A DNA stretch of 64,000 bases, from the NCBI GenBank assembly GCA_044442865.1, contig JBISJU010000001.1, positions 31,402-95,401 of the forward strand, read 5' to 3'. Source of the stretch: Candidatus Makana argininalis (GTDB lineage: Bacteria > Pseudomonadota > Gammaproteobacteria > Enterobacterales > Enterobacteriaceae). The notes beneath the pieces are model-generated. The model was not told the DNA's origin. It did not search any database and saw only the letters and a list, made by a program, of their open reading frames with translations. The number at the start of each line of letters is the position of its first letter. The stretch's first letter is position 1. The position numbers and the translations under genes were made by a program. Shown one piece after another: positions 2,746 through 62,277 of the stretch.

Positions 2746-4005
2746 TTATTTTCCTTTCATCATGTTAAAAAATTCAAAATTATTATTTGTCATTGATAAT
2801 TTACTAATTAAAAATTCTATTGCTTCTATTTCCATCATTGGATGAATAATTTTTCTCAAAATCCACATTTTTTGTAATTCTTCTTTTGTTGTAAGTAACT
2901 CCTCCTTTCTAGTACCAGATCTATTATAATCAATAGCAGGAAAAACTCTTTTTTCCGCGATTTTACGTGAAAGATGTAATTCCATATTACCGGTACCTTT
3001 AAACTCTTCATAAATAATTTCATCCATTTTAGAACCAGTATCTATCAAAGCTGTTGCTATGATTGTTAAACTTCCTCCTTCTTCCATATTACGTGCAGCT
3101 CCAAAAAATCTTTTTGGTCTGTAAAGAGCATTTGAATCAATACCCCCTGTTAATACTTTTCCTGAAGTTGGCACTATATTATTATAAGCTCTAGCTAATC
3201 TAGTAATGGAATCTAATAAAATAATTACATTTTTATTATGTTCTACTAACCTTTTAGCTTTTTCTATAACCATTTCAGAAACTTGAACATGTCTTGATGA
3301 CGGTTCGTCAAAAGTTGATGCTATTACTTCACCTTTAACTAGTCTTTTCATTTCTGTAACTTCTTCAGGACGTTCATCTATTAATAAAACAATAAGAATA
3401 CTATCTGAATGATTATAAGAAATACTTTGCGCTATTTTTTGCAAAAGAATTGTTTTACCAGCTTTAGGTGGTGCTACTATTAAACCACGTTGTCCTCTTC
3501 CAATTGGAGATGCTAAATCTAATATTCTTGCAGTTAAATCTTCTTTGGATCCATTACCTCTTTCCATTTTTAATCTATTATTTGCATGAAGAGGTGTTAA
3601 ATTTTCAAATAAAATTTTTTTATTTGAATTTTCAGGTTTATCATAATTAACTTTATTAATTTTTAATAAAGCAAAATAACGTTCTCCATCTTTAGGAGGT
3701 CTTATTTTTCCATAAATAGTATCACCAGTTCTTAAACTAAAACGTCTTATTTGACTTGGAGAAACATAAATATCATCTGGTCCAGCAAGATACGAACTAT
3801 CACTGGATCTTAAAAAACCAAAACCATCTTGCAATATTTCTAATACTCCGTCACCAAATATATCTTTTCCTCTTTTAGAATATGTTTTTAAAATTGAAAA
3901 TATTATATCTTGTTTACTCATTTTAGATAAATTTCCTAAACCCATATTTTCACCTATTAAATCTCTTTCTAAAATAGGTGTGTTCTTTAATTCTGTTAGA
4001 TTCAT
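2746..4005 (-). CDS. rho: transcription termination factor Rho
   Basis: 419-aa ORF, near-identical to E. coli Rho over long stretches ([24 protein letters not shown] Walker [12 protein letters not shown]). trxA lies immediately upstream, as in E. coli. Confidence 0.97.
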
Positions 4006-4063
4006 AATTATTAATTCTTACAATCTTTGTGTATTTTTAAAAAAATTTATATTTTATATTTAA

Positions 4064-10110: not shown

Positions 10111-10146
10111 AATTTTATTATTAAAATAATTTAATTTATAAAATTT

Positions 10147-13635: not shown

Positions 13636-13676
13636 ATAATTTATTTTTTTTCAAATATTTTATTTTAATAAAAATT

Positions 13677-16600: not shown

Positions 16601-17030
16601 CAGGACGATATATTCTGTATTGATTAAAAATATAAGCTAATTGAGTAGAAAATTTAAATTTTTTTAAAATATCATTATTTTTTAAAAAATATTTAATTTT
16701 TAAAAAATATTTATTATTTAATATATCAGGTATTAAAGAAAAAATTTTCCATGTCATAATAGAATTATTACAAGTATATTTATATTTTATATTAGGTAAT
16801 AAATTAGAAATAACATTACATATAAATTTCGAAATAGTAATAAATTTTATATTTGCATATATACCAAGTTGTTCTGATAATTTAATTTTTATCCAATTTG
16901 CAATATTTTTATTTTTAACTATAATTATTTCTGGTTTTAAAGGATCATTTTTTTTTTTTTTAACAGATATTAATAAAGAAATAATTATCTTAAGCATATC
17001 TGTGCTATTTGAATGATATATTATAAACAT
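13677..17030 (-). CDS. recC: exodeoxyribonuclease V gamma subunit
   Basis: 1117-aa ORF upstream of recB-recD. Length matches E. coli RecC (1122 aa). ptrA, which sits between recC and recB in E. coli, is absent. Confidence 0.88.
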   Translation of the reverse strand: MFIIYHSNSTDMLKIIISLLISVKKKKNDPLKPEIIIVKNKNIANWIKIKLSEQLGIYANIKFITISKFICNVISNLLPNIKYKYTCNNSIMTWKIFSLIPDILNNKYFLKIKYFLKNNDILKKFKFSTQLAYIFNQYRIYRPDWLKSWKEGKLIKNLDEDQIWQSFLWRKLINNKVHYNELILQHDKNFNNIKNIIKNKKRKNIKLPNRVFIFGISSLPPIYIKLLELLGNSMDIHNMFINPCKHYWGDIEDFNFFEKIINKCIKENNNIIFINNKTKSVLLNYISKPNLGNYFLSSWGKKCKEYIYLISNLNRIIEINAFIKPIKNNILNLIKKDILILKNYSSENKKHIYKNKILKRMIKIKDFSININACYSYYKEIEILYDKLLLIMSKDVTLKPQNIIVMAPNIKNYVASIKSIFGNYNLKNNLPFYISDIESKKINLISLSFMKLLDLPFIKLSAKKILKFLEVKSISRKFNIKNKEIDILNRWVLESGIKLELDEEKKDNNFIENINNLNSWDFGFNRMFLGYAMNSEFGSWNKILPYDKTYGLSSCLLGKFYDLINNIKYFKKKLLKPRKIKYWCSISEKIISSFFYATSPKEENILTLIKSTWKKILKYCIKSKFKEKISVKLIKEELFNKLNKKKIINNFLFGKINFCNLKSMSSINFRIVCILGINDNIIQKKKYKNNYNLIFKHPRIGDINILENLKYYFLESILSAKDIFYVSFIGNDIKNNNINTNSTFVNELIYYISNNFYIEGDQYLEEKQIINNIIKHIFKFHDINFFLKKNTFFLKKKKNYFKKNLLKLKYDLSLNSKLLLNFKNKILKLEDIIEFYNNPIKTWFINNLKIYFNKSFIESSYEKDYLNNIFTNFKIKEKILNLIIKKNNINKIFNEIKYSGLLQYGIFGKIFFLEQYKKLINLYNKIKIFNILKKRTLEVCLNFKNITLIGWIDNFYKDRIIKWSTKKISIKDGLILWIEHLIYCLYDGKKNSIMFFINGEWNFLPVKKKKAKNLLMFYILGYFKGILEPLLLFYSSSNIWKQYCYNSKNKTLNKNVNIKKKVGEQIIKYFNQKKEFYSEYNNIYIKKVVKHLNKKNINEMFFLFEKYLLPMLKFNKI

Positions 17031-27473: not shown

Positions 27474-28724
27474 TTAAAAATTTTTACGTATTACTCCATA
27501 ACCTCCACATTTTTTACATGTTTGATAGTTAAATATATTTATAGATTTATTTAATCTCTGACGAGATAATTCTAATATATAAAAACGTGAAATTTTAGTA
27601 AAATATATTTTAGCACTATCTTTTTTAAATAATTTTTTAAAAAATTTTTCTAATATATTTTTATTTTTAAAATTATTCATATTTATAAAATCAATAATAA
27701 TTAAACCATTTATATTTCTAAATATAATTTGTCTAAAAATTTCATAAGCAGCTTCAATATTAGTATTAAAAGAAGTTTCTTTAATATTTAAACCCTGTTT
27801 GGATTTAAAAGAATTTACATCAATAGATGTTAAAGATTCATGATTTTCAATAATAATAGAACCACCTGATGGTAATTTTATTTTTCTTTTGAAAATTGAT
27901 TCTATTTGATTATCGATTTGATAATAACTAAAAATATTTTGTTTATTATTAAAAAGTTTAATATTTTTTTTACAAAATTTTTCTTTAAAAAATAAAGAAT
28001 TTTTTTTAAGAAATTTTAATAATTTACTATTATCTAATATAATTTCTTTTATATCGTATTTTAAATAATTACGAAAATAATTATTAATTATGTTGTTTTC
28101 TTTATAAAGTAAAAATGGAGCTTTTACATTATTATAAGTATTTTTTATTAATTTCCAATTTTTATTTATAAAAGAAATATCATATTTTAAATCAATAGAT
28201 GATTTACCTATACCTGATGTTCTCACTATAATTCCCATATTTTTAGGTAAATTAATATTAGTAATTTTAGATTTTATTTTTTTTCTATCTAAACCTTCTA
28301 TCTTACGTGAAATACCTAATATTTTAGGATTATTAGGTATTAATATTAAATAATTTCCATATAAATTAATAAAAGTAGTTAATTTTGCACATTTATTTTC
28401 ATTTTCTTCTTGATATATTTGTACTATTATTTCTTGACCTACATAAATATTATTTTTAATATTATTATTATTTAAATTATATTTTTTATCACAATATTCA
28501 TTACAAATATGTTTATTTTGCAAAAAACCATGACGCTCATCACCATAATCTACAAATACTGCATTTAAACTAGGTTCTATTTTAGATATTATACCTTTGT
28601 ATATATTAAATTTTTTTTGTTTTTTATTTGTTATATAAATATCTAATTCACAAAGATGTTGTCCGTCTATTACAGCAATAATTATTTCTTTTTTTTTAAT
28701 TTTACTAATTAAAATTTTTATCAT
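27474..28724 (-). CDS. rne: ribonuclease E, naturally truncated (large catalytic domain plus Zn-link only)
   Basis: 416-aa ORF. NIYKGIISKIEPSLNAVFVDYGDERHGFL (S1 domain), SIDVNS (D303 equivalent), IIDFINM (D346 equivalent). It ends CKKCGGYGVIRKNF, the CPxCxGxG Zn-link at about residue 404-407 of the 1061-aa E. coli enzyme. Divergent from rluC, as in E. coli. Confidence 0.88.
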   Translation of the reverse strand: MIKILISKIKKKEIIIAVIDGQHLCELDIYITNKKQKKFNIYKGIISKIEPSLNAVFVDYGDERHGFLQNKHICNEYCDKKYNLNNNNIKNNIYVGQEIIVQIYQEENENKCAKLTTFINLYGNYLILIPNNPKILGISRKIEGLDRKKIKSKITNINLPKNMGIIVRTSGIGKSSIDLKYDISFINKNWKLIKNTYNNVKAPFLLYKENNIINNYFRNYLKYDIKEIILDNSKLLKFLKKNSLFFKEKFCKKNIKLFNNKQNIFSYYQIDNQIESIFKRKIKLPSGGSIIIENHESLTSIDVNSFKSKQGLNIKETSFNTNIEAAYEIFRQIIFRNINGLIIIDFINMNNFKNKNILEKFFKKLFKKDSAKIYFTKISRFYILELSRQRLNKSINIFNYQTCKKCGGYGVIRKNF

Positions 28725-31342: not shown

Positions 31343-32299
31343 ATGTCTAAACTAGATAACATTAAATTAATAATATTGGGATCTGGTCCTGCTGGTTACA
31401 CAGCATCAATTTATGCATCTAGAGCAAATCTTAATCCTGTTTTAATTACAGGAAGTAATCCAGGTGGACAATTAAATATAAATACTTTAATAGAAAATTG
31501 GCCAGGTGATGTAAATAAATTAACAGGATTTGAATTAATGCATAGGATGAATAATCATGCACTAAAATTCAATACAAACATTATTTTTGATAACATAATA
31601 AAGACTGATTTTAGTGTAAACCCTTTTTTAATTATTGGAGAAAAATCAGAATATACATGTGATTCTTTGATAATAGCAACAGGATCTTCAGCGAAATTTT
31701 TAGGTTTAAAATCAGAATTATTTTATAAAGGAAAAGGCTTATCTACTTGTTCAACATGTGATGGTTTTTTATACAAAAATAAAAAAGTTGCAATAGTAGG
31801 AGGGGGTAATTCTGCTGTAGAATCAGCACTTTATTTATCTAAAATATCTAAAGAAGTTAATTTAATACACAGAAGTAATATTTTTAGAGCTGAAAAAATT
31901 CTTATGGATAGATTAAATGATAAAATCAAAAACAAAAATATTATATTACATACAAATAAAATTGTTAAAAAAATTATTGGAAATAATATTTGTGTTACAG
32001 GTTTAAAATTAAAAAATCAAAATAACAATAAATATGAATTTTTAAACATTGAAGGAGTTTTTATTTCAATAGGTCATACACCTAATACTTCTGTTTTTAA
32101 ATCACAACTTGAGCTTAGTAACGGATATATATCGGTCAACAAAAATAATAGAAATAGATTTACTGCTACATCAATAAAAGGAATATTTGCAGCAGGTGAT
32201 GTAATTGATAAATTTTATAAACAAGCAATTACTGCTGCTGGTTATGGATGCATGGCGGCTTTAGATGCTGAACGTTATTTGAACGAAAAAAATGATTGA
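31343..32299 (+). CDS. trxB: thioredoxin reductase
   Basis: 318-aa [15 protein letters not shown] motif, redox [19 protein letters not shown] motif. It is the only gene in the window ending in TGA. Confidence 0.95.
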
Positions 32300-32369
32300 C
32301 TCAAATGGTTATAAATAATTTAATTAAATTTAATTTTTTTTTAAAAAATATTTTAAAATAAAGGATTAT

Positions 32370-32588
32370 ATGTCTAAAAATCACAATTTCGAAATAAAAG
32401 GCACTGTTATTGAAACATTACCAAATACTATGTTTAAAGTAGAGTTAGATAATAAACATATTGTAATTGCTCATATTTCAGGTAAAATGAGAAAAAATTA
32501 TATAAGAATATTAAATGGAGATAAAGTTATAGTTGAGGTTACACCATATGATATAAATAAAGGAAGAATAATATTTAGGAATAAATAA
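32370..32588 (+). CDS. infA: translation initiation factor IF-1
   Basis: 72-aa [41 protein letters not shown] is nearly identical to E. coli IF1. Confidence 0.96.
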
Positions 32589-32683
32589 ATCATTTATAAA
32601 ACCAAATTATTTAAATAATAAAATTATTTTTTTAAAAAAATAATTTTATTATTTAAATAATTTGGTTTTATAAATGATTTATT
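32584..32683. repeat. 100-bp perfect loopless palindrome (two 50-bp arms, centre T7/A7)
   Basis: Every position p in 32584-32633 is complementary to position 65267-p. The right arm encodes the last ~19 codons of tsaB. The left arm starts inside the last sense codon of infA. Confidence 0.95.
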
Positions 32684-33310
32684 ATCATATTCTTTTCTAA
32701 TATATTTATTTAACGCAATAGGTATCATATCTTTTGCTTTTGGAAAATTGTATTTTCCAGAAAATATATTGATTTTTTTATTTAATTTAAATGTTATATT
32801 TTTCCATCCTATTCCAGATATAGACCAAAAACCTTTTAAATTTAAAAAAATATTTTCTATTTTTTTTATTTTTAAAAAAAATTCTTGATTATTTAATTTC
32901 CATATATTTTTTTTACGTTGATATTCAGCCCAATAAAATTCTCCTATGTTGGATTTTATCAATGTTAGTACTTTACATGATCCTGTTTTTCTCCATGCTC
33001 CCTCAGCCAAAGTGTTTAAATTAGAAACACCAATTATAGGTATGTTTTGTGATATTGATAATCCATATGCAATTCCTATCCCAATTCTTATTCCATTAAA
33101 ACTCCCCGGTCCTTTGCTAACAGCAATTATATTTATTTTTTTTAAATTCATGTCAAATTTATATAATAATCTATCTATCATTTTAAGAATATATTTCATA
33201 TGTGCATAAGGTGAAATTATAAAATAATCTAAAATAATATTTTTGTAATTCATAATTGCAACTGAACAAGCCTCTGTGGAAGTATTTATAGATAAAATAT
33301 TAATTGACAT
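32624..33310 (-). CDS. tsaB: tRNA threonylcarbamoyladenosine biosynthesis protein TsaB (YeaZ)
   Basis: The ORF runs to 33328, but the second ATG (33310) is preceded by AAAAGG and gives MSINILSINTSTEACSVAIM, matching E. coli MRILAIDTATEACSVALW. The C-terminus PNYLNNKIIFLKK matches PVYLRNEVAWKKL. Confidence 0.85.
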   Translation of the reverse strand: MSINILSINTSTEACSVAIMNYKNIILDYFIISPYAHMKYILKMIDRLLYKFDMNLKKINIIAVSKGPGSFNGIRIGIGIAYGLSISQNIPIIGVSNLNTLAEGAWRKTGSCKVLTLIKSNIGEFYWAEYQRKKNIWKLNNQEFFLKIKKIENIFLNLKGFWSISGIGWKNITFKLNKKINIFSGKYNFPKAKDMIPIALNKYIRKEYDNKSFIKPNYLNNKIIFLKK

Positions 33311-33378
33311 ATAAAACCTTTTAATCATTTTATTTATATATTAAATTAATATATAATATTTATTAATCATAATTTTAT

Positions 33379-33406
33379 AAAAAACCGGGTAAACTAACCC
33401 CGGTTT
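33379..33406 (-). terminator. intrinsic terminator downstream of manZ
   Basis: The minus-strand RNA reads AAACCGGG-GUUAGUUUA-CCCGGUUU followed by further U residues. It has a GC core in otherwise pure A/T DNA and lies 9 nt after the manZ stop. Confidence 0.6.
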
Positions 33407-33414
33407 ATAATATC

Positions 33415-34251
33415 TTATAAACCAAGAAAACCTAACCAATATCCAAATATACTTAAAACAAAAAACATTATTATAATAAACAATGAATTTATTCTTTTTT
33501 TTAATAACCACATACATAATAATGTAATAAGTAAAGGGATTAATCCAGGAATTATTTGATCTAAAATAATTTGTATTGTTATTTTTTTTTCATTTGTTAT
33601 ATTATTAGATAAGACAAATGGAATATTAACATGAGTCCATTTATTAACTAAAACACCCATAATAAATAAACCTAAAATAGAAGCACCTTCTGTTATTTTT
33701 TTAAAAAATTGATTTCCTATATTATTTATTATTTTTATACCATGTTTATATCCATAAAGAATACCATAATATCTAAAACACAATCTCACCAAATTAAATG
33801 TTATAAAAAACAATAAAGGCCCCATTAAATTTCCATTTATTGATAAACCAGCTCCAATAGCTGACAATAAAGGTCTTATTGTACCCCAAAAAATTGGATC
33901 TCCTATACCGGCTAATGGACCCATTAAACCAATTTTAATGCTATTTATAGATGAATCTTTAATTAAATATCCGTTAGCTCTTTGTTCTTCCATAGCTATG
34001 GTAACACCTAATATAGGAGCTGATACATAAGGATGGGTATTAAAAAATTCTAAATGACGTTTCATTGCTAATATTAAATCATTTTTATTTTTAGAATATA
34101 AACGTTTAATAATTGGCACTATTGAAAAACAAAAACCTAGAGATTGCATTCTTTCAAAATTCCATGAACCTTGAAAAAAATTAGATCTAATAAAAACCTT
34201 TAAAATATCAATTGATGTTATTTTTTTTTTGTATTTATTTAATTTATTCAT
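33415..34251 (-). CDS. manZ: mannose PTS EIID component
   Basis: 278-aa membrane ORF. FERMQSLGFCFS, HLEFFNTHP and GPLAGIGD match ManZ. Last gene of manXYZ. Confidence 0.9.
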   Translation of the reverse strand: MNKLNKYKKKITSIDILKVFIRSNFFQGSWNFERMQSLGFCFSIVPIIKRLYSKNKNDLILAMKRHLEFFNTHPYVSAPILGVTIAMEEQRANGYLIKDSSINSIKIGLMGPLAGIGDPIFWGTIRPLLSAIGAGLSINGNLMGPLLFFITFNLVRLCFRYYGILYGYKHGIKIINNIGNQFFKKITEGASILGLFIMGVLVNKWTHVNIPFVLSNNITNEKKITIQIILDQIIPGLIPLLITLLCMWLLKKRINSLFIIIMFFVLSIFGYWLGFLGL

Positions 34252-34267
34252 TATATTTATATCCTTA

Positions 34268-35071
34268 TTAATCTAATTCATTGTCTAAATCAATAGATTT
34301 TTTTTTAGATATATTTTTTTTTTTAAAATTATTAAAATATTTTGGATTTAATTGAATATAAATTATTGACATTATTATACCTATCATACCAAATGATACT
34401 AAATTAAATTTAGAAAATGATGCTATTACAAAACCAAGATAAAAAAACGGCATTAAATATCCAGATTTCATCATATTAATAACCATAGCATATCCAACAA
34501 TAACTATTATACCCCCTGAAACATTTAATCCATTTGTAATTACTTCAGGAATTGATTCAAGTATTTTTTTTACTAAATTTGTTTTTAAAGAAATTCCAAT
34601 AATTACAGACGGAATTGCTATCCTCATTGCTTGAAGTATTAGAGCAGATAAATGTATTAATGTTATTAATTTTATATTTCCATTACTCGCTGCTTTATCA
34701 GCAGCATGTTGAAAAGCAATATTTATAGTACGGATTATTATTGTTAATAATTGTCCTGTAGCTGCTAGTGGAATAGCTAAAGCAATACCTGAACCTATTG
34801 TCTGATTTCCAGATATAACTAATATAGTAGAAATAATAGAAGCTAATGATGAATCCGGGGACATTGATGCACCTACATTCATCCATCCTAAAGTCATCAT
34901 TTCCAAAGTTCCTCCTATTATAGTACCTGTTTTTATATCACCTAATATCAAACCAATTAAACTGCATGATATTATAGGTCTATGAAATTGAAATTCATCT
35001 AAAATAGATTCTATTCCTGAAATACAAGAAAATAAAAAAATAAATAAAATTTTAATTGTACTAATATTCAT
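34268..35071 (-). CDS. manY: mannose PTS EIIC component
   Basis: 267-aa polytopic ORF between manX and manZ. The GxLEMMTLGWMNVGA-type motif is typical of ManY. Confidence 0.9.
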   Translation of the reverse strand: MNISTIKILFIFLFSCISGIESILDEFQFHRPIISCSLIGLILGDIKTGTIIGGTLEMMTLGWMNVGASMSPDSSLASIISTILVISGNQTIGSGIALAIPLAATGQLLTIIIRTINIAFQHAADKAASNGNIKLITLIHLSALILQAMRIAIPSVIIGISLKTNLVKKILESIPEVITNGLNVSGGIIVIVGYAMVINMMKSGYLMPFFYLGFVIASFSKFNLVSFGMIGIIMSIIYIQLNPKYFNNFKKKNISKKKSIDLDNELD

Positions 35072-35089
35072 AAAATATTCCTTTAAATT

Positions 35090-36043
35090 TTAATAAATTG
35101 ATAAGTTTTTAATTAAATCTATTAAATTTAATGAATTATCTTTATATACTTTTCTTACTTCTAATTCAATTCCTAATTTATTTAGTTTTTTAAAAGCAAT
35201 AATATCTTTTTTATCAACAGAAATAGCATTATTAATTTGAATTTTATTTTTATTATAAGACATTCCACCAATGTTAATGGATTTAATTTGTATTCCTTTT
35301 TCTATTACACTTAAAACATCAGATGGATTATTAAATAATAACATAACTCTATCATTAGAATATTTAGGATTATGGAATACTCTAACAGCTTTTTCTATAT
35401 TAACAACATGTGATGTTATTCCTGGAGGAGATACTTGGATAAGTAATTTTTTTCTATTTTCATCAGAATCAACTTCATCACTAACTACAATAATTCTATT
35501 TATTTTAATTTCTTTAGTCCATGAAGTTACTACTTGACCATGAATTAATCTATCATCAATTCTAACTAAAACAATATTCATAAAATTTTTATTTTTATTT
35601 ATTTTATTTTTAAAAATTAAAGAATTTTCTTTTTTATTTTTTTTTTTTAAATCTTTTAAAGTTTTTATTCCTTTTTTACCTGTTTTAATAGATATTAATA
35701 TTAATTCTTTTAAAGAAGTAATTTTATCTCTCGACATAAATACTTCTATTAACATTGGTATATTAACTCCAGAGACAACTTCGTAATTTTTATTACTAAT
35801 TGTAATACGACTTGCTGCATTAAAAGGACTGCCCCCCCATATATCAACAAAAAAAATAATCCCATTATTAATCGATAATTTTTTTATACATAAATTATAT
35901 TTTTTAAATAAATTTTCAGAACTTTCACCAGAAATAAAATCAACACATTTGACATTTTTTTGCTTTCCTAATATCATTTCCACTGTATTCAACATATATT
36001 TTGCAGATAAACCATGAGTGCTAATTATTATAGCAATACTCAT
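35090..36043 (-). CDS. manX: mannose PTS EIIAB component
   Basis: 317-aa ORF. MSIAIIISTHG (IIA His10) and VRIDDRLIHGQV (IIB His) are both present. Confidence 0.92.
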   Translation of the reverse strand: MSIAIIISTHGLSAKYMLNTVEMILGKQKNVKCVDFISGESSENLFKKYNLCIKKLSINNGIIFFVDIWGGSPFNAASRITISNKNYEVVSGVNIPMLIEVFMSRDKITSLKELILISIKTGKKGIKTLKDLKKKNKKENSLIFKNKINKNKNFMNIVLVRIDDRLIHGQVVTSWTKEIKINRIIVVSDEVDSDENRKKLLIQVSPPGITSHVVNIEKAVRVFHNPKYSNDRVMLLFNNPSDVLSVIEKGIQIKSINIGGMSYNKNKIQINNAISVDKKDIIAFKKLNKLGIELEVRKVYKDNSLNLIDLIKNLSIY

Positions 36044-36987: not shown

Positions 36988-38063
36988 ATTTTTTCCTTAT
37001 AACATTATATTAAAAATAATCGTTTTTTAAATAAAACCAATGTATGATTTTTTATCATATGCTATTATTTATATATATCATATATTTTAAATTTAGATTT
37101 TTTACGTTTATAAATATAATAAAAATATGTTTTCATTTAATTTAAACAATTAAAGTATTTATATATTATATTTATAATATTAATATATTTTTAAAATTTT
37201 TAAATTTTTTTTTTATGTTTGTTAATTAACACTTATTTATAATATAATTATTTGTATCTCTATATGTTTAAATAACTAAATCAAATAAATCATCACTGAA
37301 ATTAAAATATTTTATTAAAAATTAAAATTTTTAAATACTTTAGTATATATAATTATATTAAATATATTTAATTTTTAAATTTGTTTAGTAATATTAAAAA
37401 TATATAATTTATTGACACTGACTAATAACTATAATTATTTTATAATCATTATAACATATTTATATCTTTTAAAAAATGAAATATATTTAATTTATTCATA
37501 TATTATTAAAATTTAATTATATTAAAAATATAAATTAATAATTATAAACATATCAAAATATTTTATACTATTATTAATTTTTTTAAAAATAAACTTTTTT
37601 TAACTAATATTATACTAATTTTAATTAAATTAAAAATTTTTTATAAATAACAAAATATTTTGATATATAATTTTTTGATTTACTAAAAATATTGAATATA
37701 AATATGTTTTCAATATTTTTTTTAATATATTTTGTAAATAAATTAAAAGAATTACTATAAATCATTTTAATACATATTTATTTAATATATTTAAAATATA
37801 AATTTTTAATAAATTAATAATTTATAATAGTTATAAATTATTAATGTATATATTTTTTTTAAACAAAAATTAATTTTTGTTTTCAAATTTTTTTATAAAT
37901 TTTTAAAATATTAAATTTCATTTTAATTATAAATATAAAATAATATAAATTATTTTAAAATAACTTTAATTTAATTTAAATTATTTAATTTATAATAAAT
38001 AAATTTTATTTTATTTGTAAAATTTAAAAAATTAAATAAATTCATATAAATATTTTATAATAT

Positions 38064-38303
38064 TTATTTTTTTAATTTAAATTTTATACAATTAATTGCT
38101 TCTTTTATTGTAGTAATTTGTTCAAATTCTTCATCTTTAATTTCTAAATTAAAATTTTCTTCTAAAGATATTATTAATTCTATAATATCAAGAGAATCAG
38201 CACCTAAATCTTTAATAAATGATGTATTATATGAAATACTTTTTGTGCTTACTCTAAATTGTTTAGAAATAATTTTTTTTATTTTGTCTTCTATTTTATG
38301 CAT
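38064..38303 (-). CDS. acpP: acyl carrier protein
   Basis: 79-aa ORF with the phosphopantetheine site DLGADSLD. Downstream of fabG. Confidence 0.95.
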   Translation of the reverse strand: MHKIEDKIKKIISKQFRVSTKSISYNTSFIKDLGADSLDIIELIISLEENFNLEIKDEEFEQITTIKEAINCIKFKLKK

Positions 38304-38357
38304 TATTAAATTCCAATTTATATGTTTTAATATTTAAAAAATTAAATAAATTTTATT

Positions 38358-39092
38358 TTAAATCAAACAAATTCCACCATTAACATTTATTACTTCACCA
38401 GTAATATAAGATGATTCTTCTGAAGCTAGAAAAATTACTAAACTTGATACTTCTTCAGGTAACCCAAACCTATTCATAGGTATTCTAGATAAAAAATATT
38501 TACGTTTATTTAATGTTAATGATTTTGTCATATCAGTAATTATAAATCCTGGAGATACAACATTTACTGTTATACCCATAGATGCAACTTCATAGGATAA
38601 TGATTTACTTAATCCAACTAAACCGGCTTTAGAAGCAGAATAATTTGATTGTCCAATATTTCCAATAAACCCAATAAAAGATCCTATATTTATTATTCTA
38701 CCATATTTTTTTCTCATCATAATTTTTATTATGTATTTAGATATTAAAAATACTGAATTTAAATTAATATCTATAACAGATTTCCAATCATTTTCTTTCA
38801 TATTTATTAATAATTTATCAAAAATAATACCGATGTTGTTAATTAATACATCTATATATCTAAATTTTATATTTATTTTTTTAAAAAAATTTTTAATTGA
38901 TTTTTTTTTAGATACATCTAATTTAATGCCTATTCCTTTTTTACCTAAAAATGTATTTATGAAATTTACTCCTGAAGAACTTTTAGATGTACCAATTATA
39001 AATGCATCTAATAGTAAAAATTTTTTAACTATTGAAAGACCAATTCCTTTTCTTGCACCAGTTATTAATATAATTTTATTTTTAAAATTCAT
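38358..39092 (-). CDS. fabG: 3-oxoacyl-ACP reductase
   Basis: 244-aa SDR. TGARKGIG, NYSASKAG (YxxxK), and C-terminal NGG. Confidence 0.94.
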   Translation of the reverse strand: MNFKNKIILITGARKGIGLSIVKKFLLLDAFIIGTSKSSSGVNFINTFLGKKGIGIKLDVSKKKSIKNFFKKINIKFRYIDVLINNIGIIFDKLLINMKENDWKSVIDINLNSVFLISKYIIKIMMRKKYGRIINIGSFIGFIGNIGQSNYSASKAGLVGLSKSLSYEVASMGITVNVVSPGFIITDMTKSLTLNKRKYFLSRIPMNRFGLPEEVSSLVIFLASEESSYITGEVINVNGGICLI

Positions 39093-39101
39093 TAAATATC
39101 C

Positions 39102-40030
39102 TTATATAATTTTTTTATAAGCTTTTTTAATTGAATTAATATTATCAATAGAAATACATTCTATATTTTTAACTATATTTTTATTAATTTTAGTAAGTAT
39201 ATTACTTGGTCCACATTCTAATATTATTTTTACCCCGATTTTTGCAATATATTTAATAATTTTAATCCAATTTAATGGTTTATATAATTGATACAATAAT
39301 GATTTTTTAATTAAATTTATATTTTTTTCACAAGTAATACTTGTATTGTTAACAAATGGAATTTTTGGATTAATTAAATTTAATTTATCTAAAATTTTTG
39401 ATAATTCTAATGATATAGGTTTCATTAAATAAGAATGAAAAGGAAAACCAATAGGTAATAAAAAAGATTTAGCTCCAAATTCATAACATATTAAAATAGC
39501 TCTTTTTACGGCATTTTTATTTCCTGAAATTATTGTTTGATATTTAGTATTAAAAATTGCAGGAAATACTATTTCTCTTTTTGATGCTTTTTTACATGCA
39601 TAATAAATATATTTTTTATTTATACCTATAATAGCAGCCATTAATCCTTTTTTATATGGAAATAAATTTTTTATTATTTTTTCTCTATTTTTTAATAATT
39701 TTAATGTATGTTTAAATTTCAAAATACCAGAACATGTTAAACATGAATATTCTCCTAAACTATGACCCGCTATTACATTTGGGTTTATCCCTACAATGTC
39801 CTTTCATAATCGCCATATTGATATAGATGATACTAATAATACTATTTGTGATTTATATGTAAAATAAAATTTTTTTTTGTCATTATTTATTATTTTATAT
39901 AAATCATATCCTAAGAAGCATGAAGCTTCATCAAATGTATCTTTAATGATTTTGTATTTATTTATAAATTTGATGATGTTTTTTTTTTATTATATCCTTG
40001 ACCAGGAAAAACTATTGAAAATTTTTTCAT
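39102..40030 (-). pseudogene. fabD: malonyl-CoA-ACP transacylase with two lesions: frameshift in an A10 tract and an in-frame TGA at a conserved Trp
   Basis: The minus strand reads ATG-KKFSIVFPGQGYNKKK, then A10 (T10 on the + strand, 39979-39988) breaks the frame. The +1 frame continues IIKDTFDEASCFLGYDL...SISIWRL-TGA(39806-39804)-KDIVGINPNVIAGHSLGEYS and runs into the 206-aa ORF. The whole is collinear with E. coli FabD. Confidence 0.85.
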
Positions 40031-40085
40031 TTTTATTTCCTATTTTTAGTATAATTTATTGTTAAAATAATTAAATTAAATATAA

Positions 40086-40289
40086 TTATTTTAATTTGTT
40101 TTTTTTAATATCTTTTTTGTTTTTAATAATTTTTTTACCTTTATAAAAACCATTTTTGGATACATGATAACGTAAATGAGTTTCTCCAGAAATTTTATCA
40201 ATTGTTAAAGAAAAATTATTTTTTATTGAATCATGTGATCTCCTCATTCCTCGTTTAGATCTAGTACATTTGCTTTTTTGAACAGCCAT
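40086..40289 (-). CDS. rpmF: 50S ribosomal protein L32
   Basis: 67-aa [23 protein letters not shown] matches E. coli L32. It heads the fab cluster, as in E. coli. Confidence 0.93.
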
Positions 40290-40344
40290 TTTTTTCCTTT
40301 ATATTGAAAAACCAAATTTTTTAAAAATTTAGTTTATAATTTAA

Positions 40345-41374
40345 TTAATTTAAAATACAAAATGGAGTTTTTATGTTACAAAAAATATAAATTATATTTA
40401 AAATATCATTCCATGCTTTGTATTTATAATCTGTTTTAATTAAAAATTCTATTTTACGAATTAAAGTTAATATTTTAAATAAATCAAACATTGACATATT
40501 AAATATTAATTTTTTATAAATATTTTTTAGTTTATTACAATAAATGTTGTTAATTTTAAAAATCATTTTTAATTTAGTGTTATTTATTTTTTTTTTCATA
40601 TTTATTAATTTAATAATACTATTTTGAATAATTCTAATTATTAAAATTGGTTCAATTAATTCATATTTGAATTTGTTTAAAATTTTATTTAAATTATTAA
40701 TATTTCCATACATAATTAAATATATTAATTTATATGAATTAACTTCACAAATATTATCTAATGAATATAATAAAAATTTTAAGTTTATCAATTTTTTATT
40801 AAAAATTATTTCAAGACTGTTTAATGATTTATTAATTAATAATAAATTTCCATCATAATAATTATATAAATAATCTAAAGCATTATAATTTATTAATATT
40901 TGTTTTTTTTTAATAATTAATTTTAATAACTTAAATTTATTATTTTTATTTATATCAGAACAATTAATTATTATTATATTTTTACAAATTAATTTTAACC
41001 ATAAGGAATTTAAAATTAATTTGTTTAAAACATTAATTTCAAAAATTATTAATATATTTTCTTTTATATTTAAAATTAAATCTTTTATTTTTTTGTCTAT
41101 TGTATAATTGTATATGTTTTTATTAAATTTTATTAAAATTATTTTATTTTCATAAAATAAATTTTTTTCATTTATTGAAAAAAAAATATTTTTCCAATCT
41201 GTTTTAAAATTTATTAAAAAAGATAATATTTTTTTAAATTTTTTTTTTTGATAATTTAATAATATTTTTTTTACTTTCTTCTAATAAAAATTTATTTTCA
41301 CCATATATTAAGTAAAATTTATTAAAATATTTTTTTGAATTTTTAATTAAATCATATGTAAATATTGTAATCAT
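40345..41374 (-). CDS. holA: DNA polymerase III delta subunit, interrupted by a frameshift in an A11 tract
   Basis: The minus strand from ATG 41374 reads MITIFTYDLIKNSKKYFNKFYLIYGENKFLLEESKKNIIKLS, then A11 (T11 on the + strand, 41239-41249). The shifted frame FKKILSFLINFKTDWKNIFF...YYDGNLLLINKSL runs uninterrupted into the 148-aa ORF. The 1030-nt span is 343 codons + 1 nt. Position is downstream of leuS, as in E. coli. Confidence 0.8.
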
Positions 41375-54114: not shown

Positions 54115-55071
54115 ATGAATAAAAAAATATATTTAAGTAAAAAAAATAATATAAAATCATCAAATAATATACCTATAAAAATAATAAATAAAGAAAATAA
54201 AATCAAAAAAATAAAAAAACCTTACTGGATAAAAAATAAAATACCATTTAAAAATAAACTAATAAAAAAAATTAAAAAAATTATTATTAAAAATAAATTA
54301 AATTCTGTATGCGAAGAAGCATTATGTCCAAATCTACCAGAATGTTTTAATTCTGGAACAGCATCGTTTATGATTTTAGGAAATGTTTGTACTCGTAATT
54401 GCCCTTTTTGTAATATTAATCATGGCAGACCAATATCTAAAAATTATAAAGAACCTTTTAATCTTTCCAAAGCTATCAATGAAATGAAATTAAAGTATGT
54501 TGTAATTACTTCTGTTAATCGTGATGATCTTCATGATGGAGGATCAAAACATTTCGCAAAATGTATTAAAATTATTAGAAAAAAAAGTCATAATATTAAG
54601 ATTGAAATATTAGTCCCAGACTTCAAAAATTGTATAAATGTAGCTTTAAATATAATTAATTTACATACCCCGGATGTATTTAATCATAATATTGAAAATG
54701 TACCAAGATTGTATAAAAAAATTAGACCTGGTGCTAACTATTTCAAATCTCTTCGGTTACTTGAAAAATTTAAATTTTTTAATCCTAAAGTACAAACCAA
54801 ATCAGGTATTATGATTGGTTTAGGTGAAAAAAAAAAAGAAATTTTAAATGTATTGAAAGATCTAATTAATTGTGGTGTAAATATGATAACAATTGGTCAA
54901 TATTTACAACCTTCTTCTTATCATTTACCTGTTAAAAGATATGTTAGTCTAGAAGAATTTAAATATATTAAAAATGAAGCACTAACAATGGGTTTTAAAA
55001 ATGTTTATTGTGGACCATTTGTACGTTCATCATATCATGCAGATTTACAATCAAAAAATTTATTAAATTAA
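54115..55071 (+). CDS. lipA: lipoyl synthase
   Basis: 318-aa [15 protein letters not shown] and the radical-SAM CTRNCPFC motif. Confidence 0.96.
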
Positions 55072-55164
55072 TTTAAACATATAGTTTATTTAATATTTTT
55101 TCATTTTTTAAAAATATTTAAATATTAATTTAAGTTTAATTAAAAATATTAAAAAAATTAATTT

Positions 55165-56262
55165 TTAAATATTAATATTAATTATTTTAAATTTTTCTAA
55201 AAAATTTAATTTACATAAATAAAATTTATTTATTATTTTATCTGATAATTTATAAAAATTTTTTATTATCTTTTTTTTTTCAAAAATAAAATTTTTATCA
55301 AAAAAAATACTATTTAAAATTCTTAAAAATATATTTTCAACCCATATTTTATATGAAATATTTGTAATTAATTTATTTAAAATACAAGATGTAAATTTAT
55401 TAACTTTACTAATTTTATATGATACAAAAATAGAATATTTAAAAGAATAACCTGTGGTATTATTTAACAAACCAGCTCTCAATCCACTACAAGGAATTTT
55501 TATATTTTTAATAAAAAAATTAAAATTATTATATATATAAATAGGAATTATCCCTTTTTCTTCTTTTCTAATATTTTTGATATTAAAGTTATTTTTTTTT
55601 AAAAATTTTAATATATTACTGTTATTAATTTTAGTATTTAAATTTAAATTATTTAAGTAAATTGTATCTTCAATAAAAATTGAATATGGAGAAATTGGTA
55701 AAATATATAAAAATCTATATCCATTTTTTTGATTAATTTTAGAATCTATAATAATTGGATTTTTAATATTATGATTTATATTAAGTTGAATTTCTTGACC
55801 AAAAAAATATTGAAAATAATATTTTATATTATTATTTTTTTTATAACCACGGCCGTCAATTATTATTTCTGCATTTAATATTAAATTATTATTTAATTTT
55901 AAAGTATGATCACTTAAAATACTAACAACATACTTAAATAATATTTTTTTTTTAAAAAATTTATTTATAAATTTATAAAATTTATATGAAGTAATAGTTA
56001 AATATTCTTTTTTTATTAATCTTCTATATTTATTAAAATTTACAATATATGTAGGCCAAAAATAATCAATAATTGGCAATAACCAATTATTTTTAATTAA
56101 TAAATTATTGGTAAGGTGAAAAGACCATTTTTTGTTGTTTTTTATATTTTTTTTTTCAATTAATAAAATATTTAACTCGGGAAAATATTGTTTTAAACGA
56201 ATAGCAATAAGTCCATTAGATAATCCCACACCGATAATAATTATACTGAAATATAATTTCAT
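55165..56262 (-). CDS. crtY: lycopene beta-cyclase, CrtY type (stand-alone)
   Basis: 365-aa intact ORF, collinear with Pantoea CrtY as I remember it: IIGVGLSNGLIAIRL / LVGAGLANGLIALRL; WSFH; WPTYIVNF / WPDYQVRF; IIDGRGY / VIDGRGY; QNGYRFLYILPISP..IEDT / QNGYRFVYSLPLSP..IEDT; CSGLRAGLLNNTTGYS / CSGLRAGLFHPTTGYS. Confidence 0.8.
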   Translation of the reverse strand: MKLYFSIIIIGVGLSNGLIAIRLKQYFPELNILLIEKKNIKNNKKWSFHLTNNLLIKNNWLLPIIDYFWPTYIVNFNKYRRLIKKEYLTITSYKFYKFINKFFKKKILFKYVVSILSDHTLKLNNNLILNAEIIIDGRGYKKNNNIKYYFQYFFGQEIQLNINHNIKNPIIIDSKINQKNGYRFLYILPISPYSIFIEDTIYLNNLNLNTKINNSNILKFLKKNNFNIKNIRKEEKGIIPIYIYNNFNFFIKNIKIPCSGLRAGLLNNTTGYSFKYSIFVSYKISKVNKFTSCILNKLITNISYKIWVENIFLRILNSIFFDKNFIFEKKKIIKNFYKLSDKIINKFYLCKLNFLEKFKIININI

Positions 56263-56304
56263 ATATATTATATTTAAAGTTTAATAATAAATATATTATT
56301 TTTA

Positions 56305-56395
56305 AATTTATAATATTGTTATTATATTTATAAAATTAATTATTTATTAATATTAAGTATTTTATATTATAAATATAATAACAATATTATAAATT
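56305..56395. repeat. perfect 29-bp inverted repeat with a 33-nt spacer between lon and crtY
   Basis: 56305-56333 (AATTTATAATATTGTTATTATATTTATAA) is the exact reverse complement of 56367-56395. Confidence 0.9.
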
Positions 56396-56477
56396 AAAAA
56401 GTATTTAAAAAAATTAATCTTTTTAATAAAATATATATAATAATTAAATTATATATTTAAATTTTTTAAATATTAAA

Positions 56478-58844
56478 TTAAATTAACATATCTTCTATAT
56501 TTTTAGTTTTAAAAGGATTATTTTTTAATGAAATCATCAGTACTTCTTCTATTTTATTAACAATTTTAATATTTAAAATTTTTAAAATATTAATAGGTAT
56601 ATCTTCTAAATCCTTTTTATTTGCATAAGGTATTAAAACTTTTTTAATTCCACCTCTATGAGCAGCTAAAAGTTTTTCTTTTAACCCACCTATAGGTAAT
56701 ATTTGCCCTCTTAAAGTAATTTCACCTGTCATAGCAATATACGATTTTACTGGATTTTTTGAAATACAAGAAAAAATAGAACTACATATAGCAATACCAG
56801 CACTTGGCCCATCTTTTGGAATTGCACCTTCTGGTACATGAATATGTAAATCTTGTGTTTCATATAAATAATTATTTATTCCTATTTTAAATGTTAATGA
56901 TTTTACTAATGTAAGAGCTGCTTGAATTGATTCTTTCATTACATTACCAAGAGAACCTGTATAAATTAATTTTCCATTACCAGGAACTGATACTGTTTCT
57001 ATAGTTAATAGTTCACCACCAGTATCTGTCCAAGCCAATCCTGTTACTTGACCTATTATATTTTTTTTTTCTGCATACCCGTAATTAAATTTTTTAATAC
57101 CTAAAAATTTTTTTAAATTATTTTTATTTATATAAATATGTTTAATATTTTTATTTATTACTAATTTTTTTACTGTTTTTCTACATATTTTAGATATTTC
57201 TCTTTCTAAATTTCTCACGCCTGATTCTCTAGTATAATATCTCACTATATTTAGTATAGCTGATTTTTTTATTTCCAATTCATTGTTTTTAACAGCGTTT
57301 CTTTTTTTTTGTTTTGGAATTAAATAATTAATAGCTATATTAATTTTTTCATCTTCAGTATAACCTGAAATTTTTATTATTTCTAATCTATCAAGTAAGG
57401 GTGGTGATATATTCATAGAATTAGAAGTAGCTAAAAACATAACATCAGAAAGATCATAATCTACTTCTATATAATTATCATTAAATGTAATATTTTGTTC
57501 TGGATCTAAAACTTCAAGCAAAGCAGATGATGGATCCCCTCTTGTATCAAATGACATTTTATCAATTTCATCTAATAAAAATAAAGGATTTTTAACTCCT
57601 ATTTTAGACATTTTTTGCATTATTTTTCCTGGCATTGATCCTATATAAGTACGACGATGACCACGAATTTCAGCTTCATCACGAACACCACCTAAAGATA
57701 TTCTTATATATTTACGTCCAGTGGCTTTAGCTATAGATTTTCCAAGTGAAGTTTTACCTACACCAGGAGGCCCTACTAAACAAATAATTGGACCCTTGGT
57801 TTTATTTTTTCTACTTTGAACTGATAAATATTCTAAAATTCTTTCTTTTATATTATCTAATCCATAATGATCTTTTTCTAAAATATTTTTAGCTTTTATA
57901 ATATCCTTTTTAATATTACTTTTAATACACCAAGGAATAGATAATATACATTCAATATAACTTCTTACTACAGTGGATTCTGCTGACATTGATGACATTA
58001 ATTTTAATTTATTAAATTCTGATGTAACTTTTGCTTTAGCTTCTTTAGACATTTTAGTATTTGCTATTTTTTTTTTTAATATTTCGTTTTCATTTTTTAT
58101 TTCATCTATATCACCTATTTCTTTTTGGATAGCTTTTATTTGTTCGTTTAAATAATAATCTCTTTGACTTTTTTCCATTTGATTTCTAACTCTATTTCTA
58201 ATTTTTTTTTCTATTTTTAATAAATCAATTTCTAATTCAAGCATTTTCATCAGATATTCTATTTGTTCTTTAATATTATTTATTTCTAAAATTAATTGTT
58301 TATCAGATATTTTTAAAGGAATATGAGAAGCAATAGTATCAACTAATCTAGAAACATCATTAATAGAACTTAAAGAATCAATTACTTCTTTTGGTATTTT
58401 TTTATTTAACTTAATATATATTTTAAATTGATTTAATAAAGTTCTCATTAAAATTTCTTTTATTTTAAAATCTAATTTCTTAATTTTAACATCATGTATT
58501 TCAGATACAAAATACTCACCATTATCACATAAATGTTTTATTTTAACTTTTTTTAAACCTTCAATTAATACTTTTATAGTTCCATCTGGAAGTTTAATTA
58601 TTTGAAGTATAAATGATAATGTACCTACATTATAAATATCTGTTATATCAGGATTGTCTTGTATAGATTCTTTTTGAGTTACTATTATAACTTTTTTATT
58701 TAATTTAATTGCTTTTTCAAGACATTTAATTGATTTTTTTCTACCTATAAATAAAGGAATTATCATATATGGATAAACTACTACATCTCGAAGTGTTAAT
58801 ACAGGAATTAATATAAGATTATTAATGTCTAAATTTGAATTCAT
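56478..58844 (-). CDS. lon: Lon protease
   Basis: 788-aa ORF. Walker A GPPGVGKTS and the protease active site PKDGPSAG. Confidence 0.97.
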   Translation of the reverse strand: MNSNLDINNLILIPVLTLRDVVVYPYMIIPLFIGRKKSIKCLEKAIKLNKKVIIVTQKESIQDNPDITDIYNVGTLSFILQIIKLPDGTIKVLIEGLKKVKIKHLCDNGEYFVSEIHDVKIKKLDFKIKEILMRTLLNQFKIYIKLNKKIPKEVIDSLSSINDVSRLVDTIASHIPLKISDKQLILEINNIKEQIEYLMKMLELEIDLLKIEKKIRNRVRNQMEKSQRDYYLNEQIKAIQKEIGDIDEIKNENEILKKKIANTKMSKEAKAKVTSEFNKLKLMSSMSAESTVVRSYIECILSIPWCIKSNIKKDIIKAKNILEKDHYGLDNIKERILEYLSVQSRKNKTKGPIICLVGPPGVGKTSLGKSIAKATGRKYIRISLGGVRDEAEIRGHRRTYIGSMPGKIMQKMSKIGVKNPLFLLDEIDKMSFDTRGDPSSALLEVLDPEQNITFNDNYIEVDYDLSDVMFLATSNSMNISPPLLDRLEIIKISGYTEDEKINIAINYLIPKQKKRNAVKNNELEIKKSAILNIVRYYTRESGVRNLEREISKICRKTVKKLVINKNIKHIYINKNNLKKFLGIKKFNYGYAEKKNIIGQVTGLAWTDTGGELLTIETVSVPGNGKLIYTGSLGNVMKESIQAALTLVKSLTFKIGINNYLYETQDLHIHVPEGAIPKDGPSAGIAICSSIFSCISKNPVKSYIAMTGEITLRGQILPIGGLKEKLLAAHRGGIKKVLIPYANKKDLEDIPINILKILNIKIVNKIEEVLMISLKNNPFKTKNIEDMLI

Positions 58845-60996: not shown

Positions 60997-62277
60997 TTAA
61001 TTTTTCCAATTTAATAAACAATGTTTTTTTTTACCTTTTTTTAAAATAGTAAATTTATTATAAAGTTTATCATTTTCATTTAATAAATATTTAGGATTAT
61101 TTTGTTTGTTACCATTTATTGATATTGCATTTGATATTATTAATATTTTAGCTTGAGTACGAGATTTAGCTAAATTAGCATTTTTTAAAATTTGTGGTAA
61201 ATCGTAATTTTTTTTTATTTTTATAGTTTTCATACCATCTTTATATAATTGTCTAAAATCGTTTTTTGTCAAATTTAAAACTTTATTTTTAAATAAACTA
61301 TATGTTATTCTTTTTGCTGAATTTAAACCTATTTTTCCATGAATAAGTTGAGTAATTTCTTCTGCTAATATTTTTTTTTTATAGTTAGAAGAGTTTTTTA
61401 CAAACTTATATTTTTTTTTTATATTTTTAATTTTAATATTATTAACTAAATTAAAAATTTTTAAAAATTGACATAAATTAATATCAGAAATATTAATCCA
61501 ATATTGATAAAATTTATAAGGACTTGTTTTATTTTTATCCAACCAAATTGTCCCTTCTGATGTTTTACCAAATTTTATTCCATTAGAATTAGTTATAATA
61601 GGCACAGTTAATCCATATACTTTTTTTTTATATAATTTATTAGTTAAAAATATCCCAGAAGTAATATTTCCCCATTGATCAGCTCCACCAATTTGTAATT
61701 TTATATTATATTTTTTATAAAGATAAGAAAAATCATAACTTTGTAATAAATTATAAGAAAATTCAGTAAAAGAAATACCGTTTTTTTTAAAATTTAATCT
61801 ATTTTTAATAATTTCTTTTGTAATCATTTTATTTATTGTAAAATATTTTCCTATTTTATTTAAAAAATCAATAATATTAATTTTCTTAAACCACGATTTA
61901 TTATTTAATATAACAGCGCTATTTTCTCCACAATTAAAATTTAAAAACATAGATATTTGAACCTTAATTTTTTTAATATATGTATTAATTTTTTCAACAT
62001 TTTTAAAATTACGTTCTGTACTTTTAAAGCTTGGATCACCAATTAATACAGTAGAACCACCAATTAATATTATTGGACGATGTCCTGATAATTGAAAATG
62101 TTTTAAACATAATAAAACAACTAAATGACCAACATGTAGACTATCAGCTGTAGGATCAAAACCACAATATAAATTTATATTTTTTTTTAGTAAAATATTT
62201 GATAAATCATCTTTATTTGTAATTTGATAAATCATATTTCTATCATATAATTCTTTTATTAAATTATTTTTTTTCAT
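60997..62277 (-). CDS. tyrS: tyrosyl-tRNA synthetase
   Basis: 426-aa ORF. HVGH (HIGH), KFGKTS (KMSKS), and a C-terminal S4-like domain. Confidence 0.95.
   Translation of the reverse strand: MKKNNLIKELYDRNMIYQITNKDDLSNILLKKNINLYCGFDPTADSLHVGHLVVLLCLKHFQLSGHRPIILIGGSTVLIGDPSFKSTERNFKNVEKINTYIKKIKVQISMFLNFNCGENSAVILNNKSWFKKINIIDFLNKIGKYFTINKMITKEIIKNRLNFKKNGISFTEFSYNLLQSYDFSYLYKKYNIKLQIGGADQWGNITSGIFLTNKLYKKKVYGLTVPIITNSNGIKFGKTSEGTIWLDKNKTSPYKFYQYWINISDINLCQFLKIFNLVNNIKIKNIKKKYKFVKNSSNYKKKILAEEITQLIHGKIGLNSAKRITYSLFKNKVLNLTKNDFRQLYKDGMKTIKIKKNYDLPQILKNANLAKSRTQAKILIISNAISINGNKQNNPKYLLNENDKLYNKFTILKKGKKKHCLLNWKN

Follow-up and report, generated by a model that had tools for sequence, protein, structure and literature searches.

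Carotenoid (crt) genes in the reduced genomes of psyllid co-symbionts have already been published for 'Candidatus Psyllophila symbiotica' and 'Candidatus Profftella armatura', and symbiont carotenoid supply is also known from 'Candidatus Portiera aleyrodidarum' (PMC7643613). Here, we analysed a stretch of 64,000 bp from 'Candidatus Makana argininalis' (contig JBISJU010000001.1, positions 31,402–95,401; hereafter the window), in which a single carotenoid gene, the lycopene beta-cyclase gene crtY, lies between lon and lipA. Known as the 'Morganella-like' co-symbiont of Pariaconus psyllids from Hawaii, Makana was described in 2024 and was presented there solely as a partner complementing arginine for Carsonella (PMC11425488). 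Its genome is about 280 kb in size with a G + C content of 19.4%, the strains show no rearrangements among them, and the symbiont was lost in closed-gall species (PMC11425488). The genome from which the window derives has a length of 277,257 bp; four further Makana-type genomes, GCA_044442785.1, GCA_044442725.1, GCA_044442745.1 and GCA_051307355.1, are 276–287 kb in size. Neither crtY nor lycopene or carotenoid synthesis is discussed in the description of Makana, where 'carotenoid' occurs only within a cited title (PMC11425488). The gene is present in the GenBank annotation and undiscussed in the literature; that Makana carries any crt gene is a new point.

The described system most similar in host and genome type is Psyllophila, an Enterobacterales co-symbiont of Cacopsylla (221–238 kb, ~18% G + C), whose CrtY is the closest to that of Makana outside Makana itself (38–40% identity). 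In Psyllophila, crtY, crtI and crtB abut, whereas crtY of Makana stands alone between lon and lipA. Profftella, from Diaphorina, is also a reduced psyllid co-symbiont and has a Pantoea-type CrtY (36–39% identical to the Makana protein), but is a betaproteobacterium and carries repA and a complete crtY-crtI-crtB set on a 5.5-kb plasmid (PMC7643613). CrtY of Pantoea ananatis and other Enterobacterales belongs to the same family, shares its motifs over the full length and is 33–36% identical to the protein of Makana. The gene is part of a crtE-(idi)-crtX-crtY-crtI-crtB-crtZ cluster in the Pantoea type, whereas crtY of Makana has no such cluster around it and encodes about 14 fewer C-terminal residues. 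Portiera, the primary symbiont of whiteflies, is likewise a reduced, carotenoid-supplying symbiont of a sternorrhynchan host and harbours crtB, crtI and crtY (PMC7643613). It differs from Makana in its complete crt set, its independent origin and the marine-type 'ITAP' signature of its CrtI. A precedent for host-encoded steps in Sternorrhyncha is given by aphids, adelgids and phylloxerids, which carry fungal-derived nuclear genes for a carotenoid synthase/cyclase and a desaturase (PMC5636080). Unlike in the case of Makana, these hosts encode the entire pathway and have no symbiont cyclase.

In light of these systems, we consider it probable that crtY of Makana encodes a working lycopene beta-cyclase of the flavin adenine dinucleotide (FAD) type and descends, as the one gene that survived, from a crtY-crtI-crtB operon such as that of Psyllophila. 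According to this reading, crtY would have parted from crtI and crtB before the five Makana lineages diverged, and the enzyme would still cyclise the psi-ends of lycopene, yielding beta-carotene for the psyllid or its bacteriome. The phytoene synthase and desaturase activities would come from elsewhere, either from the rest of the Makana chromosome or from outside Makana.

The gene spans positions 55165–56262 on the minus strand and, from an ATG start codon, encodes a product of 365 amino acids; its call as crtY is based on the uninterrupted open reading frame (ORF), on hidden Markov model matches and on orthologues. The G + C content around crtY is 16%, in a window in which it ranges from 13 to 24% per 2 kb and amounts to 7% at third codon positions (GC3). 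Random frames in this composition contain about one stop per ten codons, and the probability of a chance ORF of 365 codons is in the order of 1e-17. When compared to Pfam, the product matched PF05834 (Lycopene_cycl) over residues 7–360 with an E value of 2e-46 and 159 bits (cut-off 23.4). It also matched the NCBIfam equivalog TIGR01789 ('lycopene beta-cyclase CrtY') over profile positions 2–358 of 370 with an E value of 7.3e-82 and 275.4 bits, which is above the curated cut-off of 215.2. The ORF product shares 100% identity with the GenBank entry 'lycopene beta-cyclase CrtY [Candidatus Makana argininalis]'. An earlier reading of the window from its letters alone (the sequence-only reading) had called this an intact 365-codon gene for a CrtY-type lycopene cyclase with the motif blocks of the family, all of which is borne out: by family, the ORF is confirmed as a genuine CrtY lycopene beta-cyclase at the level of its sequence.

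The GxGxxNG dinucleotide (FAD) motif and the IDGRGY, GYRF.Y.LP, IEDT and CSGLRAGL..TTGYS blocks are present in all five Makana CrtY proteins, aligned to those of Pantoea and Profftella. Across 44 CrtY sequences, Makana included, 42 alignment columns are invariant. Among 98 CrtY proteins of the free-living type, 108 columns are conserved to at least 97%; 61 of these were kept by all five Makana proteins, compared to 57 kept by Psyllophila and Profftella. A sequence comparison with the PDB, which holds no CrtY structure, gave no match. The AlphaFold2 (AF2) model of Makana CrtY, built on the 44 CrtY sequences, reached a predicted local distance difference test score (pLDDT) of 82.8 and a predicted template modelling score (pTM) of 0.84. 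Its best structural matches in the PDB were archaeal geranylgeranyl reductases (4opt and 3atq; TM score 0.69–0.70, E value 1e-13), and p-hydroxybenzoate hydroxylase (PHBH) was matched as well. We are confident that the model represents a flavoprotein fold of the class formed by geranylgeranyl reductase and PHBH, which fits the expectation for an isoprenoid enzyme of the FAD type. We infer that the protein would convert lycopene via gamma-carotene to beta-carotene.

The locus was compared with 15–21 kb around the orthologue in each of the four further Makana genomes. The orthologues are intact, occupy the same position and show 73–78% identity to the gene of the window. All Makana loci share the order cyoCBA, tyrS, clpP, clpX, lon, spacer, crtY and, in convergent orientation to crtY, lipA, followed by lipB, pykF, lpp and suf, which agrees with the sequence-only reading of a lone gene in housekeeping surroundings, flanked by lipA and lon. 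Crossing the spacer between the convergent stop codons of crtY and lipA takes 93 bp in the window (55072–55164) and 36–158 bp in the other four genomes; this is the place at which crtI and crtB come after crtY in the relatives. Hence, crtY is solitary at this locus in every Makana lineage, and since it occupies the same position in all five genomes, the arrangement is older than their divergence; the link to crtI-crtB was lost before the five split.

On its other side, crtY is separated from lon by an intergenic spacer of 215 bp with a G + C content of 2.8% (56263–56477, minus strand), which is the presumed site of the crtY promoter. In the five genomes, this spacer measures 215, 477, 831, 763 and 371 bp (the latter four at 9524–10000, 9170–10000, 9238–10000 and 9630–10000 of the respective sister loci), has 2–8% G + C and contains no ORF of note. 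Comparison of the five spacers with Crt proteins by tblastn yielded no match and no crt relic. The number of promoter-like matches in the spacer (27) does not exceed that in shuffled sequence (25.7), so that a promoter at this site is a presumption. For a genome of 277 kb, the lon-crtY spacer is unusually long and variable and may be a fully eroded lost gene. A terminator scan found no terminator-like hairpin in the crtY-lipA spacer. Scans of the window for tRNAs and Rfam families found five tRNAs only, none of them close to crtY.

In Pantoea, Xenorhabdus, Comamonas, the Profftella plasmid and seven Psyllophila-type genomes, crtY, crtI and crtB are contiguous in that order and abut or overlap. 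The start of crtI lies 1–12 bp past crtY or overlaps it in Psyllophila, Profftella, Pantoea, Xenorhabdus and Comamonas. In Psyllophila, the order is typA, a PLD-like gene, crtY, crtI and crtB, and all Psyllophila records stop shortly past crtB. In neighbour-joining trees, the CrtY proteins of Makana and Psyllophila grouped at 100% bootstrap support, and this pair joined the Profftella protein at 92–100%. Both groupings were also obtained with Dayhoff-6 recoding, which was used to damp AT-driven convergence. As the trees are distance-based and have long branches, the grouping of Makana with Psyllophila is a lead, not a proof. The contiguous operon in the relatives together with this grouping suggests that crtY of Makana would be the survivor of such an operon.

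The relationships of CrtY also bear on the proposal of the sequence-only reading that the gene may mark an Erwinia/Pantoea-like ancestry of the symbiont, which was not supported. The protein is only 33–36% identical to that of Pantoea and groups with Psyllophila and Profftella instead, and Makana itself was placed near Morganella (PMC11425488). The fact that CrtY groups with the plasmid copy of the betaproteobacterial Profftella indicates that crt genes move horizontally. A further observation concerns gene order outside the crt locus. In Makana, trxB, tsaB and manZYX are found together (31343–36043), while in Psyllophila manXYZ is directly followed by trxB, infC-rpmI-rplT-lpdA-typA, the PLD-like gene and crtYIB. 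In E. coli, trxB, tsaB and the man genes are widely separated. The common trxB/man junction and the CrtY tree are a hint at a single, old lineage of psyllid co-symbionts comprising both Makana and Psyllophila.

The ratio of non-synonymous to synonymous substitution rates (dN/dS) was determined pairwise among the five Makana genomes with the NG86 method, with a bootstrap for each pair. For crtY, dN/dS was 0.44 (0.31–0.56) at a dS of about 0.28, and the upper 95% bootstrap bound stayed below 1 in every pair. By the same measure, the genes of Psyllophila, which has the full operon, gave 0.50 for crtY, 0.27 for crtI, 0.59 for crtB and 0.19 for typA. With 0.44 compared to 0.50, crtY of Makana is as constrained as that of a symbiont with the complete pathway. 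The gene is thus under purifying selection in Makana, as strong as that on crtY of Psyllophila, and the relaxed selection that the sequence-only reading had asked to be checked for was not found. Since crtY is under selection, it can be argued that lycopene is available to the enzyme.

These values also bear on the possibility that crtY is a functionless leftover awaiting inactivation. Carotenoid genes are indeed being lost in this symbiont group: published cases are the symbiont of Anomoneura, in which crtB, crtI and crtY have all been lost, and Psyllophila of Cacopsylla mali, in which crtY is a pseudogene. In the genome of the latter, we found only a C-terminal ORF of 209 amino acids for crtY (locus positions 3379–4008) next to intact crtI and crtB. 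This remnant is in line with crtY having been published as a pseudogene in this symbiont, and the arrangement is the converse of that in Makana. A relic would also fit the observation that crtY has the highest dN/dS at its locus. Opposed to this, all five lineages carry an intact gene at a dS of about 0.28 and a dN/dS of 0.44. Moreover, neutral simulation with the base composition of the genome and 0.05–0.14 substitutions per site predicted 5–13 premature stops per lineage; the probability of finding no stop was at most 0.008 per lineage, with indels uncounted. Based on these results, a decaying relic is close to exclusion.

Several points weigh against a working cyclase as proposed above. Among ten genes of the locus that were compared, crtY is the least constrained (0.44 compared to 0.16–0.37 for its nine neighbours), in a measure that is biased at 7% GC3. 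The substitutions H45K, P78N/K and W227F occur in all five Makana proteins, at positions that are conserved in all other CrtY, symbionts included, and the C-terminus is shorter by the residues mentioned above. In addition, a cyclase without crtI and crtB has no known substrate, on account of which the function of crtY stays a deduction.

The three substitutions and the shortened C-terminus, which all five Makana proteins share, could alternatively mean that CrtY was kept for another reaction, e.g. on another isoprenoid or as a flavoprotein that took on a new substrate. Such a change would be in line with selection on a gene whose partner genes were not detected. However, the protein passes the cut-off of the CrtY equivalog and keeps slightly more of the family-invariant columns than the symbionts with the full operon (61 compared to 57 of 108). 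We know of no precedent for a changed function of CrtY and regard it as very unlikely. A lycopene beta-cyclase derived from a crtYIB operon continues to be the reading that we prefer, and the source of its substrate becomes the central question.

The sequence-only reading had noted that the usual crt partners are not encoded nearby, which is supported by our searches. A tblastn search of the window with CrtE, CrtX, CrtY, CrtI, CrtB and CrtZ of Pantoea ananatis and CrtY, CrtI and CrtB of the Profftella plasmid recovered crtY only, all other matches having E values above 0.9. The searches with CrtE, CrtX, CrtI, CrtB and CrtZ were also negative in the four sister loci (15–21 kb each). Directly past crtY, in the gap of 36–158 bp to lipA, tblastn detected neither crtI nor a crtB following it in any of the five Makana loci. 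The Makana sequence covered by the searches for crtI and crtB amounts to about 70–85 kb, or about 30% of the chromosome.

For a wider search, a sequence block of CrtI, [FYHL]D.GP[TS]hh[TS]xP, was derived from 120 marine metagenome crtI loci and scanned with A or T at third codon positions. The tenth residue of the block is Ala in every marine sequence, whereas the Pantoea type has Asp, Asn or His at this position. Of the best 120 CrtI matches, 118 contain the block, and so does every symbiont CrtI. A scan of the GTDB species genomes returned 30 stretches, comprising five Psyllophila-type chromosomes, which serve as positive control, and otherwise Xenorhabdus and Bacteroidota; no Makana contig was recovered from this collection, in which the membership of Makana is unconfirmed. 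The codon-level chance of detection is estimated at about 0.6 per genome, with five genomes available. By a rough estimate, an existing crtI of Makana would be missed about once in three times. Two other designs were rejected. The AT-coded C-terminal CrtI motif THPGAGxPG, applied to metagenome contigs, was swamped by marine SAR11-like low-GC crtI, and the discriminators P in FRPHN and G/A after PGV would miss even the CrtI of Psyllophila.

Protein searches yielded little more. A profile search with CrtI of Psyllophila and Profftella, which is of little power, returned no Makana protein among the best 120 of 2944 matches. In a calibration with the analogous CrtY profile, CrtY of Makana was found only at ranks 91–99 of 103, below the proteins of the Pantoea type. 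Makana proteins rank below these because of a composition correction of about 80 bits, and the result of the CrtI profile is therefore uninformative. Among the top 150 matches of an exhaustive CrtI search of representatives at 50% identity, CrtI of Portiera was the only additional very AT-rich protein; this is weak evidence, since a CrtI of Makana sharing 50% identity or more with that of Profftella would be hidden in the cluster of the latter. A word-masked CrtI query of Psyllophila returned only the five query proteins and lost the Profftella control, and is hence void. Overall, the searches are weak evidence against a crtI of the canonical Pantoea type in Makana.

Two further observations were made during these searches. 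CrtI of Psyllophila and two other symbiont-like CrtI proteins (from an ENA contig and from Pantoea sp. Aalb) have KPGGC in place of the KPGGR of the family, which seems to be either a shared or a convergent change of the cofactor-binding motif. The best non-Makana CrtY match in the protein search (36% identity) and a CrtI match are located on one Logan contig of 7,315 bp, which presumably holds a crt cluster from a Pantoea-like organism yet to be described.

Two sources of lycopene have to be weighed. As a special case of the preferred reading, crtI and crtB may have moved elsewhere on the Makana chromosome. Makana alone would then produce beta-carotene from geranylgeranyl diphosphate of the host, as do Psyllophila, Profftella and Portiera. 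Purifying selection on crtY is explained most simply by lycopene production in the same cell, and crtB, crtI and crtY occur together in all other known symbiont cases. With just about 30% of the chromosome covered and protein searches of little power, the negative results leave room for such genes. However, a complete pathway requires a breakpoint exactly within the 1–2 bp between crtY and crtI, which abut in all relatives. In addition, the block scan recovered the five Psyllophila-type genomes and none of Makana, whose membership in the collection is unconfirmed, and no very AT-rich CrtI other than that of Portiera was found among the top 150 representatives. We regard a complete pathway in Makana as possible but short of probable.

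Alternatively, Makana may have lost crtI and crtB, so that lycopene or another carotenoid with psi-ends would be supplied from outside, by genes moved to the psyllid nucleus, by another resident bacterium or with the diet. The absence of crtI-crtB from an otherwise invariant position in five genomes points in this direction, as does the scan that detected crtI in Psyllophila and gave none in Makana (with the membership of Makana unconfirmed), and crtY is still selected. Psyllids are also known to fill gaps in the pathways of their symbionts by means of nuclear genes obtained through horizontal transfer (PMC11425488). On the other hand, the loss of both genes is deduced from about 30% of the Makana chromosome and, for crtI, from one block scan, and a Dickeya-like co-symbiont was found in just two of the Makana-bearing host species. 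Acyclic carotenoids are scarce in leaf and phloem diets, which likewise counts against an outside source. Furthermore, the psyllids examined for carotenoid genes encoded by the insect, Pachypsylla and Diaphorina, yielded none (PMC5636080), and every sequenced Carsonella lacks crt genes (PMC11427311). An orphan cyclase fed from outside is thus rather unlikely. The split carotenoid pathway put forward by the sequence-only reading is plausible as an idea; in its full form, in which Makana lost crtI and crtB and Pariaconus synthesises beta-carotene from lycopene that is formed by genes outside Makana and cyclised in the symbiont, it remains doubtful. If true, the most interesting outside source would be crtB and crtI of symbiont origin in the nuclear genome of the psyllid, acquired by transfer.

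The remaining content of the window is largely made up of housekeeping genes. The convergent downstream neighbour of crtY is lipA, encoding lipoyl synthase (54115–55071, plus strand; identified from its translation and from Radical_SAM and LIAS_N Pfam matches on orthologues). The co-directional upstream neighbour is the gene of the lon protease (56478–58844, minus strand; identified from its translation and from LON_substr_bdg, AAA and Lon_C matches on orthologues). From its start, the window contains argB, argH, rho, trxA, gnd, yggT, hemW, recDBC and three tRNAs, followed by ybgI, fldA, glnS, rpoD, dnaG, tsaD, dnaB, a tRNA, a short rne, rluC and serS. The order continues with trxB, tsaB, manZYX, nusB, hspQ, acpP, fabG, a short fabD, rpmF, holA, leuS and eno, and ends with sufABCDSE, lpp, pykF, a tRNA, lipB, lipA, crtY, lon, clpX, clpP, tyrS and cyoA.

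Some of these genes deviate from expectation. The gene after clpP is tyrS (60997–62277, minus strand; 426 amino acids), identified by tRNA-synt_1b and SYY_C matches on orthologues. The order tig-clpP-clpX-lon of E. coli would predict tig at this position, from which trigger factor is apparently absent. The rne ORF (27474–28724, minus strand) encodes 416 amino acids and represents the N-terminal catalytic part of RNase E only (profile positions 1–416 of 1068), the scaffold half being missing. The fatty-acid and replication genes at 36988–41374 look eroded: about 1.07 kb without an ORF is found where fabF would be expected after acpP (38064–38303), fabD is an ORF of 206 amino acids with a TTG start and a weak Pfam match (E value 1e-4), and holA consists of an ORF of 148 amino acids and a separate one of 46. 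By contrast, recD, recB and recC are of full length (601, 1162 and 1117 amino acids) and take up 8.7 kb (8305–17030, minus strand) of the 277-kb genome. The retention of recBCD in Makana was also remarked on in its description (PMC11425488).

Carotenoid supply by symbionts is otherwise based on a self-contained crtB-crtI-crtY set, as in Portiera, Profftella and Psyllophila. Makana represents the reverse of the known erosion, since the gene of the last step is retained and uncoupled from the first two. A cyclase held by selection for millions of years after its separation from the operon can be read in two ways. On the one hand, carotenoid provisioning would join the reasons for the retention of Makana in free-living and open-gall Pariaconus. 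On the other hand, if crtI and crtB are truly gone, an unrecognised source of lycopene and a pathway divided between partners would be implied. Such a split pathway, if true, would be the carotenoid counterpart of the host-symbiont mosaic pathways for amino acids.

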